Shown here piece by piece: positions 4,747-54,233 of a stretch of 64,000 bases of DNA (positions are counted from its first letter, which is position 1; every line of letters starts with the position of its first letter). Source of the DNA: an uncultured Porphyromonadaceae bacterium (lineage in GTDB: Bacteria > Bacteroidota > Bacteroidia > Bacteroidales > Muribaculaceae); contig CAMWMR010000006.1 of NCBI GenBank assembly GCA_947175425.1, forward strand, positions 19,878 to 83,877. The letters run 5' to 3'. Under the pieces are notes generated by a model. The model did no database searches. It was not told the DNA's origin and worked only from the letters and a program-made list of their open reading frames with translations. The position numbers and the translations under genes were made by a program.

Positions 4747-5655
4747 ATGGCACGCGATCTCCTCAACCGATATATCTGGTTAGTTGACACCATACGCCGG
4801 TATGGCCGCATAAGCCGCCGGCGCATTGACGAGCTGTGGGCACGCTCGCCGTTTTCCAACGGCGAGCCCATGCCTCGCCGGACATTCTACAACTACCGGC
4901 AGGCCGCAGAGGAGCTTTTTCAAGTGGAAATAAAGTGCGATCCGGCAACCTTTGAGTATTATATCGACGAAAATATCGCCGAAACCGACGGCATTTCCAA
5001 ATGGCTGCTCAATACTGCCGTGACACACGAAGCGCTGTCTCGCTCGAACGACCTCGCTTCGCGCATATTTGTGGAAGACGTACCCTCGGCAAGAGAGTTT
5101 CTCGCTCCGGCCATGGACGCATTGCGCCACAACAAACCCATAAAATTCAATTATCTCCCATACTCCAGAACAATCACCACAACCGGCGTTGTTCTCGAAC
5201 CTTATTTTCTCAAGCTTTTCAAACAGCGCTGGTACGTTACAGGCCGACATGTAGCCGAAAACAAAATCAAGACTTACGCCTTGGATCGCATGTCGGCACT
5301 ACGCCTGCTGCCCGAATCATTCGAACCGGACGAAAATTTCCGTCCCACCGAATTTTTCCGCAATTCTTTCGGAATTGTGTTTACCGACGGCGAGGTTAAA
5401 AACGTGGTTATAAAAGTAGAGCCCCGGCAGGCAAAATACTTCCGCGCCCTCCCGCTTCATCACACACAGCAGGAGTACGTACACGATGCATATTCAATTT
5501 TCAGTTATCGGCTGAGGCTTAGCCCCGATTTCCTTGAGGAACTTCTTTCGCACGGCTCGCGCATTACAGTTATGGAGCCTCCCGAACTGCGTGCAATGGT
5601 TTGCGACGAACTCTCACGTTCGCTTGCCAACTATTATTCCGATAAAGAGGCATAA
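4747..5655 (+). CDS. WYL domain-containing transcriptional regulator
   Basis: ORF 4720..5655. Preferred start is MARDLLNRYIWLV (ATG 4747). Has an N-terminal wHTH-like region and a WYL-type core KQRWYVTGRHVAENKIKTYALDRMSAL. Confidence 0.7.
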   Translation: MARDLLNRYIWLVDTIRRYGRISRRRIDELWARSPFSNGEPMPRRTFYNYRQAAEELFQVEIKCDPATFEYYIDENIAETDGISKWLLNTAVTHEALSRSNDLASRIFVEDVPSAREFLAPAMDALRHNKPIKFNYLPYSRTITTTGVVLEPYFLKLFKQRWYVTGRHVAENKIKTYALDRMSALRLLPESFEPDENFRPTEFFRNSFGIVFTDGEVKNVVIKVEPRQAKYFRALPLHHTQQEYVHDAYSIFSYRLRLSPDFLEELLSHGSRITVMEPPELRAMVCDELSRSLANYYSDKEA

Positions 5656-6152
5656 AGCCCCTCGCAGGCACTTTCAAGCAAATCAAGAACAAGTTCAAAG
5701 CCTTCGGCTCCTTCGTAATAGGGGTCGGGAATATAATCGTAGCGGCTTGCACAACGAATAAAATCGGCCATGCAGAAAATCTTTTCCTCATCCTCGGGCG
5801 AGGGAGCCATGCGGCGAAGATTCCTTTCATTATCGGCATCCATGGCGATTATAAGGTCGAAACGTTCGAAATCCGCTGTTTTTACCTGCCGGCAAATATG
5901 ATCCAGTTCATACCCGCGTCGTCTTGCATGGATACGCATACGTTTGTCGGGTAACTGTCCGACATGCCAACCGCCGGTGCCCGCCGAATCTATAACCCAA
6001 CGATGAGAGGCGCCATGAGCGGCCACAACTGCATTCATAATACCGTCGGCTGCCGGAGAACGGCAAATATTGCCCAGGCACACAAACAACACGCGAACCT
6101 TATCGCTTGCGGCAAGGCTCGAAAGATATTCCTGTTGACGTTTGGTAATCAT
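5634..6152 (-). CDS. low-molecular-weight protein-tyrosine phosphatase
   Basis: P-loop CLGNICRSP (CX5R-S) and a DPYY general-acid motif. 172 aa. The 3' end overlaps the convergent WYL gene by 22 nt. Confidence 0.9.
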   Translation of the reverse strand: MITKRQQEYLSSLAASDKVRVLFVCLGNICRSPAADGIMNAVVAAHGASHRWVIDSAGTGGWHVGQLPDKRMRIHARRRGYELDHICRQVKTADFERFDLIIAMDADNERNLRRMAPSPEDEEKIFCMADFIRCASRYDYIPDPYYEGAEGFELVLDLLESACEGLYASLSE

Positions 6153-6246
6153 TCTGCAAAAATATAAAACAGCTTTCTAATCTACAAATCGAACGTCATA
6201 ACAGCGCTATGTGAGAACAGTTTTTGCTCACTAAAATAAGTTTTTG

Positions 6247-6254
6247 TATATTTG
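6247..6254 (+). promoter_or_regulatory. Bacteroidetes -7 promoter box (TAtaTTTG) upstream of lysS
   Basis: TATATTTG lies 56 nt upstream of the lysS ATG in a 157-bp divergent intergenic region. Confidence 0.5.
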
Positions 6255-6309
6255 CACATTAATTGAGGCCGAAGTGCCATTTCCTAACGATTAACTGCTT
6301 TATACAAAT

Positions 6310-8040
6310 ATGAACGCACCCGAATTGAGCGAACAGGAACAAATACGCCGCAACAGCATGGCTGAACTGCGCCGAATGGGCATTGAGCCCTATCCTGCCG
6401 CAGAATACAAAGTTACAGGATACAGCGATGAAATAAAAGACGGTTTCTCCGATGAAGCTCCCGCCCGTGAAGTGGCTGTGGCAGGTCGTATTATGAGCCG
6501 CCGAATTATGGGAAAAGCCTCTTTTGTTGAACTTCAGGACTCCAAAGGCCGCATACAGATTTATATTTCCCGCGATGAAATTTGCCCCGACGAAAACAAG
6601 GACTTGTATAACATCGTTTTCAAGAAGCTCCTGGACATCGGCGACTTCATTGGCATCAGCGGATACGTATTCCGTACACAAACCGGCGAAATATCAATCC
6701 ACGCCCGCGAGCTTACCGTGCTGAGCAAATCACTTCGCCCGCTGCCTATTGTAAAAATAAAGGACGGTGTTACATACGATGCTTTCGACGACCCCGAGCT
6801 GCGCTATCGCCGCCGCTATGTGGATTTGGTTGTAAACGACGCTGCAAAACAAATATTCCTAAAGCGCACAAAAGTTTACAACTCAATGCGCGAATACTTC
6901 AATCAGGCAGGATATATCGAGGTTGAAACCCCTATCCTCCAGTCCATTCCCGGCGGCGCTTCGGCTCGTCCGTTCATCACTCACCACAACGCGCTGGACA
7001 TTCCGCTGTACCTCCGCATTGCCGACGAACTTTACCTCAAGCGTCTCATTGTAGGCGGCTTCGAAGGGGTTTACGAATTCTCCAAGAACTTCCGTAACGA
7101 AGGCATGGACCGCACTCACAATCCCGAGTTCACTTGCATGGAGATTTATGTGGCCTACAAGGACTACAACTGGATGATGAACTTTACCGAACGCATGCTC
7201 GAAAAAATATGCATGGACGTAAACGGCACCACCGAAGTAAAAGTAGGCGACAACACCATAAGCTTCAAAGCTCCCTTCCCCCGCGTTACAATGGCTCAGG
7301 CCATTAAGGAGCACACCGGCGTGGACATTACCGGAATGGATGAGGAACAGCTCCGCCAAACAGCCAAAGACCTTGGAATTGAAGTGGACGAAACAATGGG
7401 CAAAGGCAAACTGATTGACGAGATTTTCGGCGAAAAATGCGAAGGCCTCTACATTCAGCCCACATTCATCACCGACTACCCCATTGAAATGTCGCCTCTC
7501 ACAAAACGTCACCGCGACAATCCCGAACTTACCGAACGCTTTGAGCTCATGGTTAACGGCAAGGAGCTTGCAAATGCTTACTCGGAGCTTAACGACCCTA
7601 TCGACCAGTACGAACGCTTTGTAGAACAAATGCGCCTTGGCGAAAAAGGCGACGACGAGGCCATGATTATTGATGCCGACTTTATCCGCGCGCTCGAATA
7701 CGGTATGCCTCCCACATCGGGTATGGGTATCGGTATGGACCGTCTTGTAATGCTCATGACCGGACAGACTGCAATCCAGGAAGTTCTTCTCTTCCCCCAG
7801 ATGCGCCCTGAAAAAGTTGAAAAACGCGACAGCGCCGAAGTTTTCGTTGCAGCCGGTATACCCGAGGAATGGGTGGCCCCGCTGCAGAAATGCGGTGTGC
7901 TCACCGTGGCTGCACTGGCTCCGATGAACCCCAACAAACTCTTCCAGGAACTTTGCGGTTACAATAAGAAAAACAAGCTCGGTCTCACCAATCCCAAGCC
8001 CGAAGACGTGGCTGCATGGGTGGAGGCCGCCAAGCAATAA
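6310..8040 (+). CDS. lysS: lysine--tRNA ligase (class II)
   Basis: 576 aa. Has an OB-fold anticodon-binding N-terminus and class II core motifs ([26 protein letters not shown]). The C-terminal extension is typical of Bacteroidetes LysS. Confidence 0.95.
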
Positions 8041-50827: not shown

Positions 50828-51646
50828 ATGGCCGACACAAACGACCGCTGGAGTGAAATAGAACACCTGCCCGAATGGGACGAGGAATTTTATCACATCT
50901 TTACCGCCAAGAAATTCGGCAAATGGGTGATGATAAAAACACTGCGCCCCGAATATGCCGATAATCCGCGCTATCAGGCAATGATAGAGCAGGAGTTCGA
51001 TGTGCGCTACAGCCTTGCGCATCCCAATATTGTTATGATTAACGATTTTGAGGATATTCCCGGCATAGGACGCTGTATTGTCACCGACGATGTGTACGGC
51101 GACAGTCTGCGAAAGCTCATCGACACCGGCAAAGTTACCCCGGCACATATCGAGCAGTTGCGTCATCAGCTTGTCAACGCTTTGGAATATATCCAGGGAA
51201 AACACATTGTGCATGCGCCGCTTACTCCCGACAACATTATTTTTACCGAAAACATAGGGAACCTCAAGCTCATAGATGTAGGCTTTGAACAGAAACCGTC
51301 GCTGTCGCATCAATCCACAGCCGACGACATCTATAACTACGGTCTTGTGCTTACCGCCGCGCTTGACGCCTGCAAGAATTACGACAGCACCCTGCGCCGT
51401 GTGGCGCACAAATGCTGCGACCCGGAACCGCGCCGCCGCTATCGCGACATGCAGCAGGTACACCTTGCTCTGGAAAACAGGAGTACCCGGTACATCTATC
51501 TTGCAATCATTGCTTTTCTGGTGCTTATGGTTCTGCTGTTATTATGGCTTAAATCGCCTTACAGCCCCAAACCGGCAACTCTGCACCCCGCACCGGCCAA
51601 TATAATCAATCATTTGTCAACATGTCTGTATACGTTCATCCTATAG
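50828..51646 (+). CDS. membrane-anchored protein-kinase-like protein with degenerate catalytic loop (predicted pseudokinase)
   Basis: Kinase-fold landmarks are WVMIKTL (beta3 Lys), HPNIV, HIVHAPLTPDNIIF in place of HRDLKPxN, and KLIDVGF in place of DFG. There is no Gly-rich loop. C-terminal TM helix YIYLAIIAFLVLMVLLLLWL. Confidence 0.6.
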   Translation: MADTNDRWSEIEHLPEWDEEFYHIFTAKKFGKWVMIKTLRPEYADNPRYQAMIEQEFDVRYSLAHPNIVMINDFEDIPGIGRCIVTDDVYGDSLRKLIDTGKVTPAHIEQLRHQLVNALEYIQGKHIVHAPLTPDNIIFTENIGNLKLIDVGFEQKPSLSHQSTADDIYNYGLVLTAALDACKNYDSTLRRVAHKCCDPEPRRRYRDMQQVHLALENRSTRYIYLAIIAFLVLMVLLLLWLKSPYSPKPATLHPAPANIINHLSTCLYTFIL

Positions 51647-52752
51647 CTGCCGACCCCGACCAGCTTAGCCAATATATCAATTTTTCCGTAAACCTGTACC
51701 GCGACGCACCCTGCTACGTGCCCCCGCTTTACATCGACCAGCTTGCCACTCTCACTCCCGAAAAAAACCCGGCTTTCGATTTTTGCGAGGCTTGCTCGTT
51801 CATGGCTTGGCGCAATGGAGAACCGGTGGGCGTGATTACCGCAATAGAGAACAAAGCCGCCAATGAAAAAACCGGCCGCAAGCAAATGCGCTTCGGCTTT
51901 ATGGATTTTATCGACGACAAAGAAGTTGTGGACGAGCTTTTCTACGCCGTTGCCGAATGGGGACGAAACCGGGGGCTAACCGAAATGGTTGGTCCCGTAG
52001 GATTCACCGACATGGATCCCGAAGGTATGCTCATCGAAGGTTTCGATGAAATGGGCACCATGGCGACAATCTACAATTATCCCTACTACCGCGACCACAT
52101 GGAACGAATGGGATTTGTAAAAGACGCCGACTGGGTTGAGTACCGCATAACTGTGCCCGATGCCGTGCCCGAAAAACATGCACGCATAGCCGAGATTGTG
52201 CGCCGCAAATATAATCTCAAAGTTGTTAAATACACCTCCAAGAAAAAAATCAAGGAAGAGTACGGGCACGCCATTTTCGATTTGGTTAACGAGGCTTACG
52301 CCGACCTCTACGGCTTTGTGCCTCTCACCGAACGCCAGATCGACCATTACATTGACCAATATCTTGGTGTTCTCCGCCTGGACGACGTTGTACTCATAGC
52401 CGATTCCGACGACAAACTCGTAGCCCTCGGCATTTCCATGCCTTCCCTTTCGCAGGCACTGCGCAAAAGCGGAGGCAAGCTGTTCCCCTTCGGTTGGTGG
52501 CACCTGCTCAAGGCAATCCGCGGAGCTTCCGATGTTGTCGACCTGCTGCTTATAGCAGTAAAACCCGAGTATCAGAACAAAGGAGTGAACGCGCTGCTTT
52601 TTGCCGACCTCATTCCGCGATACAATGCCAACGGCTACCGTTTCGCCGAAAGCAATGTTGAGCTCGAAGGCAACGAGAACGTTCAGAAGCAGTGGGAATA
52701 CTTCGAACGCAGGCAGCACCGCCGCCGCCGCGCTTGGATAAAGCCGCTCTGA
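51622..52752 (+). CDS. GNAT-like N-acyltransferase family protein (assignment tentative)
   Basis: 376 aa. Resembles the roughly 380-aa Bacteroidetes proteins usually annotated as GNAT acetyltransferases (segments VGVITAIENKAANEKTG and IAVKPEYQNKGVNALL). Overlaps the upstream gene by 25 nt. Confidence 0.45.
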   Translation: MSVYVHPIAADPDQLSQYINFSVNLYRDAPCYVPPLYIDQLATLTPEKNPAFDFCEACSFMAWRNGEPVGVITAIENKAANEKTGRKQMRFGFMDFIDDKEVVDELFYAVAEWGRNRGLTEMVGPVGFTDMDPEGMLIEGFDEMGTMATIYNYPYYRDHMERMGFVKDADWVEYRITVPDAVPEKHARIAEIVRRKYNLKVVKYTSKKKIKEEYGHAIFDLVNEAYADLYGFVPLTERQIDHYIDQYLGVLRLDDVVLIADSDDKLVALGISMPSLSQALRKSGGKLFPFGWWHLLKAIRGASDVVDLLLIAVKPEYQNKGVNALLFADLIPRYNANGYRFAESNVELEGNENVQKQWEYFERRQHRRRRAWIKPL

Positions 52753-52767
52753 CGAACACTTTTTTTG
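52741..52767. repeat. left copy of a 27-nt imperfect direct repeat (covers the stop codon of the GNAT-like gene)
   Basis: AAGCCGCTCTGACGAACACTTTTTTTG. 25 of 27 positions are identical to 54207-54233. Confidence 0.85.
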
Positions 52768-52829
52768 TGAAGCATAAGGCTCTCCACAAAGAATAAAAAT
52801 AACAGTTGCCGACAACAACAAACTCAAAA

Positions 52830-52837
52830 TATTTTTG
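52830..52837 (+). promoter_or_regulatory. Bacteroidetes -7 promoter box (TAttTTTG) for the ATPase/TOPRIM-like cassette
   Basis: TATTTTTG lies 15 nt upstream of ATG 52852, implying a very short leader. Confidence 0.5.
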
Positions 52838-52851
52838 CAAATTTGCACATT

Positions 52852-53850
52852 ATGGATAAATCCGCACCAAGCAATCCAACGAGCGTAACCATTAAGAACT
52901 TTAAGTCTGTAAAATCGGTAACGCTCTCCGACTGTCGGCGCATTAATGTGCTGATAGGCAGACCCAATGTCGGCAAAAGCAACATACTTGAAGCTCTCGC
53001 TCTGTTTGATGTGCCATATATGGTAAATTCATCAAACAAATCCCTGAAAAACCTTCTCCGTATTGAGAATGCGTCAGACCTGTTTCACAACGGAGTTGCC
53101 ACAACTCCAATAGAAGTATCTGCCGACGGCAATACAATCACTGTTCTCCGAAGTGCGAACAGCGGACTTTCGGTTGACATCTCTATACAAGGCGAGGTTT
53201 CCAAGTATGCATTTACTTCGTCCCTGACTTTGTCAACAAAGAAAGAGCCTGCTATTCTGCCGGATGTTCTTACGTATTTTTTTCCGAAACACTTTGTCCC
53301 GGAATCTTCCAACATTGGATTTCTGCAGCCTCCGTCGGGTGGAAATCTTATGGAGACGGTTGCAAATTTACCTGCTCTGAAATCCGGCCTTGCGGAACTG
53401 TTCCACGGCTACGGATTGAAGATGATGTTCGATGCAGGCTCCCGACAGATAAAGGCTATGAGAGAAAACGGCCTTGATATGTTCCTTGTGCCGTTCAGTT
53501 CTCTTGCAGATTCATTACAGCGACTGATATTCTATAAAGCTGCGATTGAAAGTAACCGAAACAAGGTTTTATGTTTTGAAGAACCGGAAGCCCATACCTT
53601 CCCGCCTTACATAGCAAATGTGGTAAACGATATTATTGCAGGCGAAAGCAACCGGTTTTTCATAACAACCCACAGCCCGTATGTCATGAGTTCATTACTT
53701 GAAAGTGCAGGCACTGATTTGGCTGTGTATGTCGTTGACATGGAGGACAACTCGACAGTAGTCAAGCGTCTTACCGACAAGCAACTTCAAGAAGCCTATG
53801 ACAATGGAATGGATATGTTCTATAATCTTGAAGCATATCTTGGCAAATGA
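52852..53850 (+). CDS. ABC/OLD-type AAA ATPase (AAA_15/AAA_21-like), short form
   Basis: ORF 52843..53850 (TTG). Preferred start is ATG 52852. Has an N-terminal VTIKNFKSVKSVTL strand, Walker A GRPNVGKS (nt 52957-52980), signature-like SLADSLQRL, Walker B VLCFEEPEAH and H-loop ITTHSP. Confidence 0.8.
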   Translation: MDKSAPSNPTSVTIKNFKSVKSVTLSDCRRINVLIGRPNVGKSNILEALALFDVPYMVNSSNKSLKNLLRIENASDLFHNGVATTPIEVSADGNTITVLRSANSGLSVDISIQGEVSKYAFTSSLTLSTKKEPAILPDVLTYFFPKHFVPESSNIGFLQPPSGGNLMETVANLPALKSGLAELFHGYGLKMMFDAGSRQIKAMRENGLDMFLVPFSSLADSLQRLIFYKAAIESNRNKVLCFEEPEAHTFPPYIANVVNDIIAGESNRFFITTHSPYVMSSLLESAGTDLAVYVVDMEDNSTVVKRLTDKQLQEAYDNGMDMFYNLEAYLGK

Positions 53851-54188
53851 ACCAACGTGCCGATTTCATAATACCGGAGTGTTACATTGACACAAATCTT
53901 GTGGAGACTTTGGTATGCACGGGCGGCTGCAACCACCAAAAAGGCTGTAATCAGGTTGCCAAAGTCATGCAGGAAAAATTTGCCGACCGTTTCGCCGTTG
54001 GAATAATTGATGCAGATAAAAGACGTCCGGGATATTTGAATGAGTTTAATGAGATAGCGTCCAGCGAGCATATAAGATGGAATCGCTCATCTCCTATCTT
54101 GCCGATAATACATATATGGCATCCAATGACAGAATTTCAGAGATATTCCAAACCAACGAGTAAATCGCCCTCATGTATCATTGTTTAA
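53847..54188 (+). CDS. small TOPRIM-like protein (113 aa), possibly frameshifted or truncated at the C-terminus
   Basis: The start overlaps the ATPase stop (ATGA). FIIPECYIDTNLVETL (E-x3-D) and AVGIIDADKR (DxD) fit the two TOPRIM metal-binding motifs. The last ~40 aa have an odd composition, and an alternative frame reads more protein-like. Confidence 0.45.
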   Translation: MNQRADFIIPECYIDTNLVETLVCTGGCNHQKGCNQVAKVMQEKFADRFAVGIIDADKRRPGYLNEFNEIASSEHIRWNRSSPILPIIHIWHPMTEFQRYSKPTSKSPSCIIV

Positions 54189-54206
54189 CCGTGAGTCGTA
54201 GGGCAG

Positions 54207-54233
54207 AAGCCGTTCTGATGAACACTTTTTTTG
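54207..54233. repeat. right copy of the 27-nt imperfect direct repeat
   Basis: AAGCCGTTCTGATGAACACTTTTTTTG. Retains a TGA at the same relative position as the GNAT-like gene stop. Confidence 0.85.

Follow-up and report, generated by a model that had tools for sequence, protein, structure and literature searches.

A probably mobile cassette with an intact OLD-type ATPase gene and a deletion remnant of its putative Toprim-like partner in a Muribaculaceae genome

Pairs of an ATP-binding cassette (ABC) ATPase and a Toprim domain are a major theme in prokaryotic immunity and include OLD, Gabija, PARIS, AbiL and retron effectors. Here we describe a locus with an ABC ATPase gene and an overlapping second gene in a stretch of 64,000 nucleotides (the window) from an uncultured Porphyromonadaceae bacterium of the Muribaculaceae (assembly GCA_947175425.1, contig CAMWMR010000006.1, positions 19,878 to 83,877). 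For Bp OLD the two-metal site of the Toprim domain has been described, with E400, E404, D455, D457 and E508 as ligands and K562 in an assisting role (PMC6755086). In AriB the Toprim glutamate is essential, as demonstrated with an E26A mutant (PMC12409363), and DUF4276 has been assigned to the Toprim superfamily (PMC12065111). HEC-01 (Hma-embedded candidate 01) consists of the ABC ATPase HEC-01A and the TOPRIM protein HEC-01B and showed no defence in E. coli tests (bioRxiv 10.1101/2024.01.29.577857, Payne et al.). We read the region from about 52791 to 54198 of the window as a horizontally acquired cassette of 1.4 kb and as a copy, inactivated not long ago, of a two-gene module that is widespread and consists of an ATPase and a Toprim-like, metal-dependent nuclease, and assign this reading a probability of about 0.65.

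The genes of the cassette and the parts of the second gene are located as follows; L014 is the locus of the closest relative, Duncaniella muris DSM 103720, and dN/dS is the ratio of nonsynonymous to synonymous substitution rates.

52852..53850, + strand: intact OLD-type ABC ATPase (AAA_15/AAA_21) of 332 amino acids (aa), from ATG 52852 to TGA 53850
53847..54188, + strand: open reading frame (ORF) of 113 aa as now read, 76 genuine residues plus a frameshifted tail of 37 residues, stop TAA
53847..54075, + strand: kept 5' part of the partner gene, codons 1-76, with E11, D15, H30, D55 and D57; dN/dS 0.02 against L014
54075..54076, + strand: point where an internal deletion of 226 bp has joined the flanks, with a microhomology of 3 bp and loss of about codons 77-151
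54076..54163, + strand: kept 3' end of the partner gene, out of frame; the old frame reads ...MESLISYLADNTYMASNDRISEIFQTNE, with the original stop TAA at 54161-54163

The second ORF starts with ATG 53847, which overlaps the stop of the ATPase gene as ATGA, and contains FIIPECYIDTNLVETL and AVGIIDADKR. A search of 5.8 billion proteins with this 113-aa ORF revealed 395 homologues. Among the 120 listed nearly all are 177-190 aa long, and at most 85% of the window ORF was matched. The protein alignment shows identity up to residue 76 (…SSEHI) and no similarity beyond it. At the nucleotide level the cassette is 91% identical to D. muris over 1287 nt, and in this alignment position 6232 is joined to 6456 with an overlap of 3 nt. 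In the alignment with a second relative (L001), target position 229 is joined to 455 at the window junction; each of the two alignments contains a single gap of 226 bp. Because 226 cannot be divided by 3, the final 37 residues are read in a shifted frame, and the original stop is out of frame. The sequence MESLISYLADNTYMASNDRISEIFQTNE, which is the C-terminus of the partner family, is seen in the frame-2 (+2) translation of the window, and 27 of the 28 residues encoded by the old-frame 3' remnant are identical to D. muris. Lost with the deletion are H81, E/D96 and K127, as well as strand b4 and the greater part of the helical domain. The dN/dS value of the ATPase against L014 is 0.10, and the range of 0.02-0.10 for the two genes indicates that both were under purifying selection until recently and that the deletion is young.

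The 113-aa ORF is thus a recently deleted, frameshifted copy of a partner that normally has about 180 aa, and not a minimal variant. An earlier reading made from the sequence only had offered both a new minimal variant and a decaying remnant. The second term fits gene 2 with its out-of-frame deletion; the first does not hold, because homologues of the ATPase invariably come with a longer partner, of about 180 aa or, in one subfamily, 150 aa. Lacking the second-metal ligand and the lysine, the window partner is almost certainly inactive and the window module very probably dead. The locus is best annotated as an intact orphan ATPase and a partner pseudogene rather than as a working system.

The ATPase belongs to the AAA_15/AAA_21 group of OLD-type ABC ATPases, as the sequence-only reading had proposed. 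The Pfam models AAA_15 (PF13175; E 2.4e-17, 64 bits against a cut-off of 32.1) and AAA_21 (PF13304; E 1.2e-11, 45.6 bits against 27) both matched above their gathering scores. The gene structure and motifs noted earlier, namely GRPNVGKS (residues 36-43), SLADSLQRL, VLCFEEPE and TTHSP in the ATPase, the ATGA overlap, and FIIPECYIDTNLVETL and AVGIIDADKR in the second ORF, were found as described. A TTG three codons upstream of ATG 52852 accounts for the listing of the ATPase as an ORF of 335 aa. The conserved elements comprise a Walker A motif G36-x4-GKS43, EEPE at 243-246, PP at 251-252 and THSP at 273-276; GxxxxGKS, EEPE and THSP are invariant across the family, and so is the C-terminal motif Y316-x2-G-x-D-x-F323-x-N. 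We obtained 1162 homologues at E <= 1e-5, with about 332 aa among the matches listed. The ATPase had been regarded as unusually short; 332 aa is the native full length of this family, and the protein is not truncated. For the ATPase of the window no record exists in the collection.

PADLOC models matched the ATPase in the order AbiLi (1e-19), AriA (6e-19), ATPase-Toprim (2e-18), HEC-01A (3e-15), and GajA and Old (both 1e-13), and the nearest PDB sequence is the OLD nuclease of Retron Eco8. In Eco8 OLD, P2 Old, Ts OLD and GajA the Toprim strand follows an LF(F) linker, and the C-terminal motif of the ATPase lines up with this linker, so that the two genes are collinear with a fused OLD nuclease that is split there. 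Using a concatenated profile of ATPase and partner against PDB, the match reached the OLD linker (LFF) and did not extend into the Toprim domain.

Intact copies of the pair, with 332 aa and 177-180 aa and the ATGA overlap, are present in many metagenomic contigs, with a neighbourhood unlike that of the window. The index of the assembly collection lists one ATPase variant in more than 4000 blocks, and the partner clusters are very frequent in Muribaculaceae of the mouse gut. Taking one genome per species, a scan yielded 56 loci, which belong to Muribaculaceae (Duncaniella, Lepagella, Amulumruptor, Sangeribacter), Phocaeicola sartorii, Butyricimonas, Parabacteroides, Prevotella, Chitinophagales and Methylobacter. 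In these loci the ATPase gene lies directly upstream of every partner gene, except for partners at contig ends or reduced to short fragments, and the two genes overlap or nearly abut. Members with about 30% identity retain this arrangement. Partners with about 150 aa form a subfamily that shares homology with the main one (probability 99.7%); it occurs in archaea, KSB1, Planctomycetes and Spirosomataceae and is preceded by an overlapping gene for an AAA_15/21 ATPase of 327-338 aa. Geoglobus ahangari pleomorphic virus 1, a provirus of archaea, has an ATPase gene whose product shows 37% identity across 96% of the query; the gene after it encodes a 149-aa protein of the partner family (hhalign probability 99%, E 2.6e-18), which is a member of the 150-aa subfamily. 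In this pleolipovirus (BK065157, L163, 3965-5406) the pair corresponds to gp15/gp16; it is flanked by two winged-helix regulators, and a RelE/ParE toxin gene is close by. One Spirosomataceae locus (L166, 602-4471) has a divergent UvrD/PcrA helicase gene beside the pair, which recalls class 2 OLD and Gabija and may be coincidence.

The neighbourhoods differ among genomes and sometimes include an island with integrase and restriction-modification genes, an Abi_2 gene or HipA. Most of the loci L002-L007 carry a gene for a 383-aa ATPase_2/KAP-like NTPase (PF01637) directly upstream of the pair (about 5590-6741), which is missing in L001 and points to a small island of variable content. Partner genes have decayed in other genomes too: two loci (L054, L060) have different internal deletions, and two others (L062, L063) retain stubs of 43 codons without an ATPase. 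Such repeated and independent decay would be expected for a toxic effector. In a tblastn search of the ATPase against plasmids the only match was a 5'-truncated fragment on a Parabacteroides distasonis plasmid (L008), and tblastn of the partner against plasmids and phages gave no match.

The following features lie at or next to the ends of the cassette in the window.

52741..52767, unstranded: left copy of a 27-bp imperfect direct repeat, AAGCCGCTCTGACGAACACTTTTTTTG, which includes the stop and final codons of the GNAT-like gene upstream
52791..52851, + strand: cassette-borne upstream region common to the relatives; nucleotide homology to L014 and L001 begins about 60 nt before the ATG
54207..54233, unstranded: right copy of the 27-bp imperfect direct repeat, AAGCCGTTCTGATGAACACTTTTTTTG

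The two repeat copies bracket the cassette and agree in 25 of 27 bases; the local alignment score is 22, whereas 200 shuffles reached 12.5 at most. Two further loci carry flanking repeats of different, unrelated sequence, 21 and 33 bp long (L023, about 4806/6730; L032, about 4937/6785). No integrase or transposase gene is present inside the cassette. The G+C content of the cassette is 43.8%, compared with 50.8% for the whole window and 51-52% for the 5-kb flanks, so the low G+C noted earlier is real, with a smaller contrast than the 55% given then for flanking DNA. The cassette is absent from all 80 loci that are orthologous for the GNAT gene upstream. The downstream POT gene is also missing in all 80, and the precise empty site could not be reconstructed from these loci. 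Low G+C, absence from the 80 orthologous loci, differing neighbourhoods, the flanking repeat and the repeated decay of the partner together support the view that the pair behaves as a mobile accessory cassette.

Upstream of the insertion, a 272-aa protein-kinase-like gene (50828-51646) overlaps the start of the GNAT-like gene (51622-52752) by 25 nt, and most of the 80 related loci show synteny for these two genes, at an identity of about 57% or above. By contrast, all that follows downstream of the GNAT gene differs among these loci, which places a synteny breakpoint at the insertion site.

The sequence-only reading had assigned the cassette a private promoter box, TATTTTTG, at 52830-52837. 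The box is present; TAnnTTTG occurs 36 times in the window, with 37.6 occurrences expected by chance, and therefore the box has no weight on its own. Among 17 loci of the Muribaculaceae type, which include L014, L001 and L019, 16 have a TAnnTTTG box 14-15 nt before the ATG of the ATPase, a position which implies a leaderless or near-leaderless mRNA. The position is kept even where the remaining upstream DNA is unrelated. The window counterpart of this conserved box is CAAATTTG at 52838-52845, a degenerate copy with a T-to-C change; TATTTTTG sits 8 nt upstream of it and is not conserved. A scan of the cassette for sigma-70 promoters and terminators was uninformative.

The partner family comprises 733 representatives at 50% identity, 409 of them at E <= 1e-10. 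Among those listed, nearly all full-length members have 160-200 aa; the relatives of the window ORF all have 150-190 aa. Conservation was counted over 76 diverse members (A4) and gave the following positions.

76 of 76 members: E11, D/E15, D55, D57 and E/D96
75 of 76 members: C12 and G52
74 of 76 members: H30
72 of 76 members: K127
71 of 76 members: H81 and K58

The E-x3-D and DxD constellation pointed out earlier is thus invariant across the family. The conserved acidic set with its lysine parallels the two-metal machinery of Bp OLD. The 150-aa subfamily keeps the invariant Glu and the DxD (E5, D47, D49). In some members of this subfamily C12 is replaced by Gly and the equivalent of H30 is lost together with it. 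Besides the acidic residues C12, directly after the catalytic Glu, H30, C34, H81 and H86 are conserved, which are not typical Toprim features; these residues might form an additional metal or regulatory site. A zinc-ribbon reading of CxxxCxHxxxC was rejected, as C24 and C28 are not conserved outside close relatives.

Toprim is a three-layer a/b/a fold with the sheet order b2-b1-b3-b4. An AlphaFold2 model of the partner, computed from the alignment of the 76 sequences with a pLDDT (predicted local distance difference test) score of 96.5, contains in order b1 (8-10), a helix, a short strand at about 28, a helix, b3 (50-55, ending with DxD), a helix, a hairpin, a strand (86-91), a helix and a C-terminal helical bundle. 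In the model E11 and DxD are placed at the ends of strands 8-10 and 50-55, which are the Toprim positions after b1 and b3. The predicted order of secondary structure is compatible with a Toprim fold followed by a helical domain. Judged from the conserved residues a Toprim fold of the partner may be assumed, and we consider its Toprim homology likely.

Several results weigh against our reading of the cassette. A Foldseek search of PDB and BFVD with the pLDDT 96.5 model found no match below E 0.1, the hhalign comparison between the partner profile and full-length P2 Old did not reach significance (probability 0.2%), and the partner had no significant match in Pfam, PADLOC, NCBIfam and PHROGs. 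No experiment ties the partner family to phage defence, and HEC-01, the closest named candidate, provided no protection. The window cassette does not lie within a defence island; its neighbours are the housekeeping genes for alpha-amylase, a kinase-like protein, GNAT, a POT transporter and phospholipase A1. One lineage of the 150-aa subfamily (L164, 3021-5799), in which the pair overlaps the co-directional der/engA gene, is a possible hint at a role outside defence. Finally, an assembly artefact is a possible source of the 226-bp deletion. These points bear on different alternatives.

The fold results bear on the possibility that the partner is not a Toprim protein and has another Rossmann-like fold with an acidic pocket (receiver/CheY-like, PIN/NYN-like or HAD-like) and another activity. 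The sequence-only reading had proposed a structural comparison with TOPRIM folds; the Foldseek searches gave no significant Toprim match, and the fold is supported by motifs only. PDB contains the Toprim domains of AriB, OLD and GajA, and the best PDB match of the model had E 0.8; no OLD or GajA chain was among the 50 matches listed, and 8UX9 was not matched. With two models searched against PDB, the better one also against BFVD, no match at E <= 0.001 was obtained. The best non-significant matches were partial and consisted of receiver domains, Rae1/YacP (NYN) and one DnaG Toprim (E 2). The profile scans, which covered the window ORF2, six full-length partners, the 76 members, ten divergent members and a 40-member subfamily set (A5), gave no match to a Toprim hidden Markov model. 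Below the threshold they touched DUF4276 (2/76, E 0.027), HEC-01B (2/76, about 0.02-0.03), MAD4 (1/76, 0.035) and PDC-M03B (1/76, E 4.5e-5). The partner profile against PDB sequences gave coiled-coil noise alone. The conserved C12, H30, C34 and H81 would also be unusual for a Toprim protein. However, five acidic positions and the Lys occur in the order of the OLD Toprim domain, with a Glu-to-DxD spacing of 44 compared with 55 residues. In the 150-aa subfamily EC alternates with EG, and some members read VEGxxD, which resembles the LLVEGxx[ED] motif of OLD/GajA. An hhalign comparison with a mini-alignment of three OLD/GajA Toprim sequences was not significant, but its best register sets E on E and DxD on DxD, and the pair is collinear with the fused enzymes. 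We therefore consider a different fold unlikely.

If OLD, Gabija and PARIS are taken as models, the ATPase dimer of an intact pair would act as a sensor or regulator that holds the nuclease in check, and a cue derived from the phage would release or activate the nuclease. The nuclease might then cut DNA or RNA by means of a two-metal site formed by E11, D15, D55, D57 and E/D96, with K127 assisting, so that the infection would be aborted. The intact pair is probably an anti-phage system. As an alternative, the intact pair could be a toxin-antitoxin-like or selfish module, or a housekeeping pair acting on nucleic acids, for example an RNase M5-like maturase with an ATPase regulator. This would agree with the inactivity of HEC-01, with the many copies standing singly among housekeeping genes and with the apparent operon with der/engA in one subfamily copy, and Toprim domains also act in RNA maturation. 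The patchy distribution, the varying location within one family, the low G+C, the carriage across phyla and by a virus and the frequent pseudogenes are, however, unlike housekeeping genes. Moreover, the nearest PADLOC relatives of the ATPase are all defence ATPases, and a role in addiction does not exclude abortive-infection defence. A function of this other kind therefore seems rather improbable to us.

Returning to the anti-phage interpretation, we tentatively propose, at slightly less than even odds, that the intact relatives constitute an uncatalogued, compact 'split-OLD' immune module. It would consist of a 330-aa ABC ATPase and a stand-alone nuclease of the Toprim clade with 150-180 aa, in which an unusual E-C...H...C/H set lies beside the two-metal site. 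It would be abundant in Muribaculaceae of the murine gut and scattered across Bacteroidota, Methylobacter, archaea and an archaeal virus. The profiles of PADLOC, Pfam, NCBIfam and PHROGs do not detect this module. If the proposal is correct, the recurrent disruption of the nuclease gene reflects the cost of a toxic abortive-infection effector, and the pair would be among the smallest in which an ABC ATPase is combined with a Toprim protein (about 510 residues) and a tractable minimal model for gating of a nuclease by an ATPase. It would also fill the annotation gap of 733 partner clusters without a family assignment.

Two explanations concern the deletion in the window itself. It could be an artefact of assembly or sequencing, so that the organism carries an intact pair; the window apparently comes from a metagenome-type assembly, and neither the window nor its ATPase is on record elsewhere. 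No internal repeat is present that could collapse the segment, and the 3-bp microhomology at the junction is typical of genuine deletions. Independent internal deletions and fragments of the partner gene occur in several other genomes, and the conserved -14 promoter box is also mutated in the window, which fits decay. An artefact is thus highly unlikely. That the 113-aa ORF is a functional, miniaturised Toprim-like partner in a new minimal two-gene system can be dismissed as extremely unlikely: the ORF is open, overlaps the ATPase stop like intact systems, retains E11, D15, D55 and D57 and follows an intact ATPase under purifying selection, but its tail is a frameshifted read of an old 3' end that still gives 27/28 family residues in the old frame, the invariant E/D96 and the near-invariant H81 and K127 are lost together with strand b4 and the helical domain of the model, 0/120 homologues listed share its architecture, the window ATPase is not on record, and other genomes show different independent truncations.

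With the window copy regarded as a recently inactivated member of the widespread module, the module can be compared with the named systems. Its closest named relatives are HEC-01, then AbiL, PARIS, the OLD family and Mad3/Mad4, and it would belong to none of them, because the partner is not recognized by their models and the ATPase is without the insertions of the named systems. The membership in PARIS, AbiL or OLD suggested earlier found no support in the partner, which has no significant match to DUF4435, RloB, OLD-Toprim or DUF4276. HEC-01 shares the two-gene layout of an ABC ATPase and a stand-alone Toprim-type protein, and the window ATPase matches four HEC-01A models (E 3e-15 to 7e-13). 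In contrast, the HEC-01B models reach two of the 76 partners only at E of about 0.02-0.03, and the pair is not embedded in Hma systems. AbiL has the same two-gene layout, and among the PADLOC models AbiLi matches the ATPase best (E 1.1e-19), but the strongest stretch of this match spans only positions 4-91 of 340 in the profile, many other ATPase models score near it, and the partner matches none of the AbiLii, RloB or DUF4435 models. PARIS also has separate genes for the ATPase and the Toprim effector, and the AriA model matches with E 6e-19, mostly in 42 N-terminal residues (11-52). However, AriA, at about 55 kDa, contains coiled-coil and trigger-binding insertions, and AriB has 35 kDa, compared with 332 aa and about 180 aa here; none of the 76 partners matches DUF4435 or AriB, and the AriA sequence of 8UX9 scores E 0.022. 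PARIS was also sought by walking P4-satellite hotspots in E. coli, and 0/7 hotspots inspected held it.

Mad3/Mad4 of MADS and the AAA_21/DUF4276 pairs resemble the module in combining an ATPase with a Toprim-superfamily protein of about 200 aa, and weak matches to MAD3 (E 4e-8), DUF4276 (2/76) and MAD4 (1/76) were obtained. The MAD3 score of 32.8 bits compares with a cut-off of 420 bits, and no methyltransferase or other MADS genes are nearby. Gabija differs by its adjacent GajB helicase, for which the divergent UvrD gene in one subfamily locus is the only counterpart. With the OLD family (P2 Old, Ts/Bp OLD, GajA and retron Eco8 OLD) the module has in common the ATPase clade and the order of ATPase, ...Y..G.D.F(F) linker, hhhE[GC]xx[DE], DxD, acidic residue and Lys. 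It differs in that PF20469 is not matched, Cys replaces Gly after the putative catalytic Glu and a UvrD/GajB partner is not the rule. Whereas the OLD domains are fused in a polypeptide of 520-750 aa, here they would be split at the linker into two overlapping genes with a total of about 510 aa.

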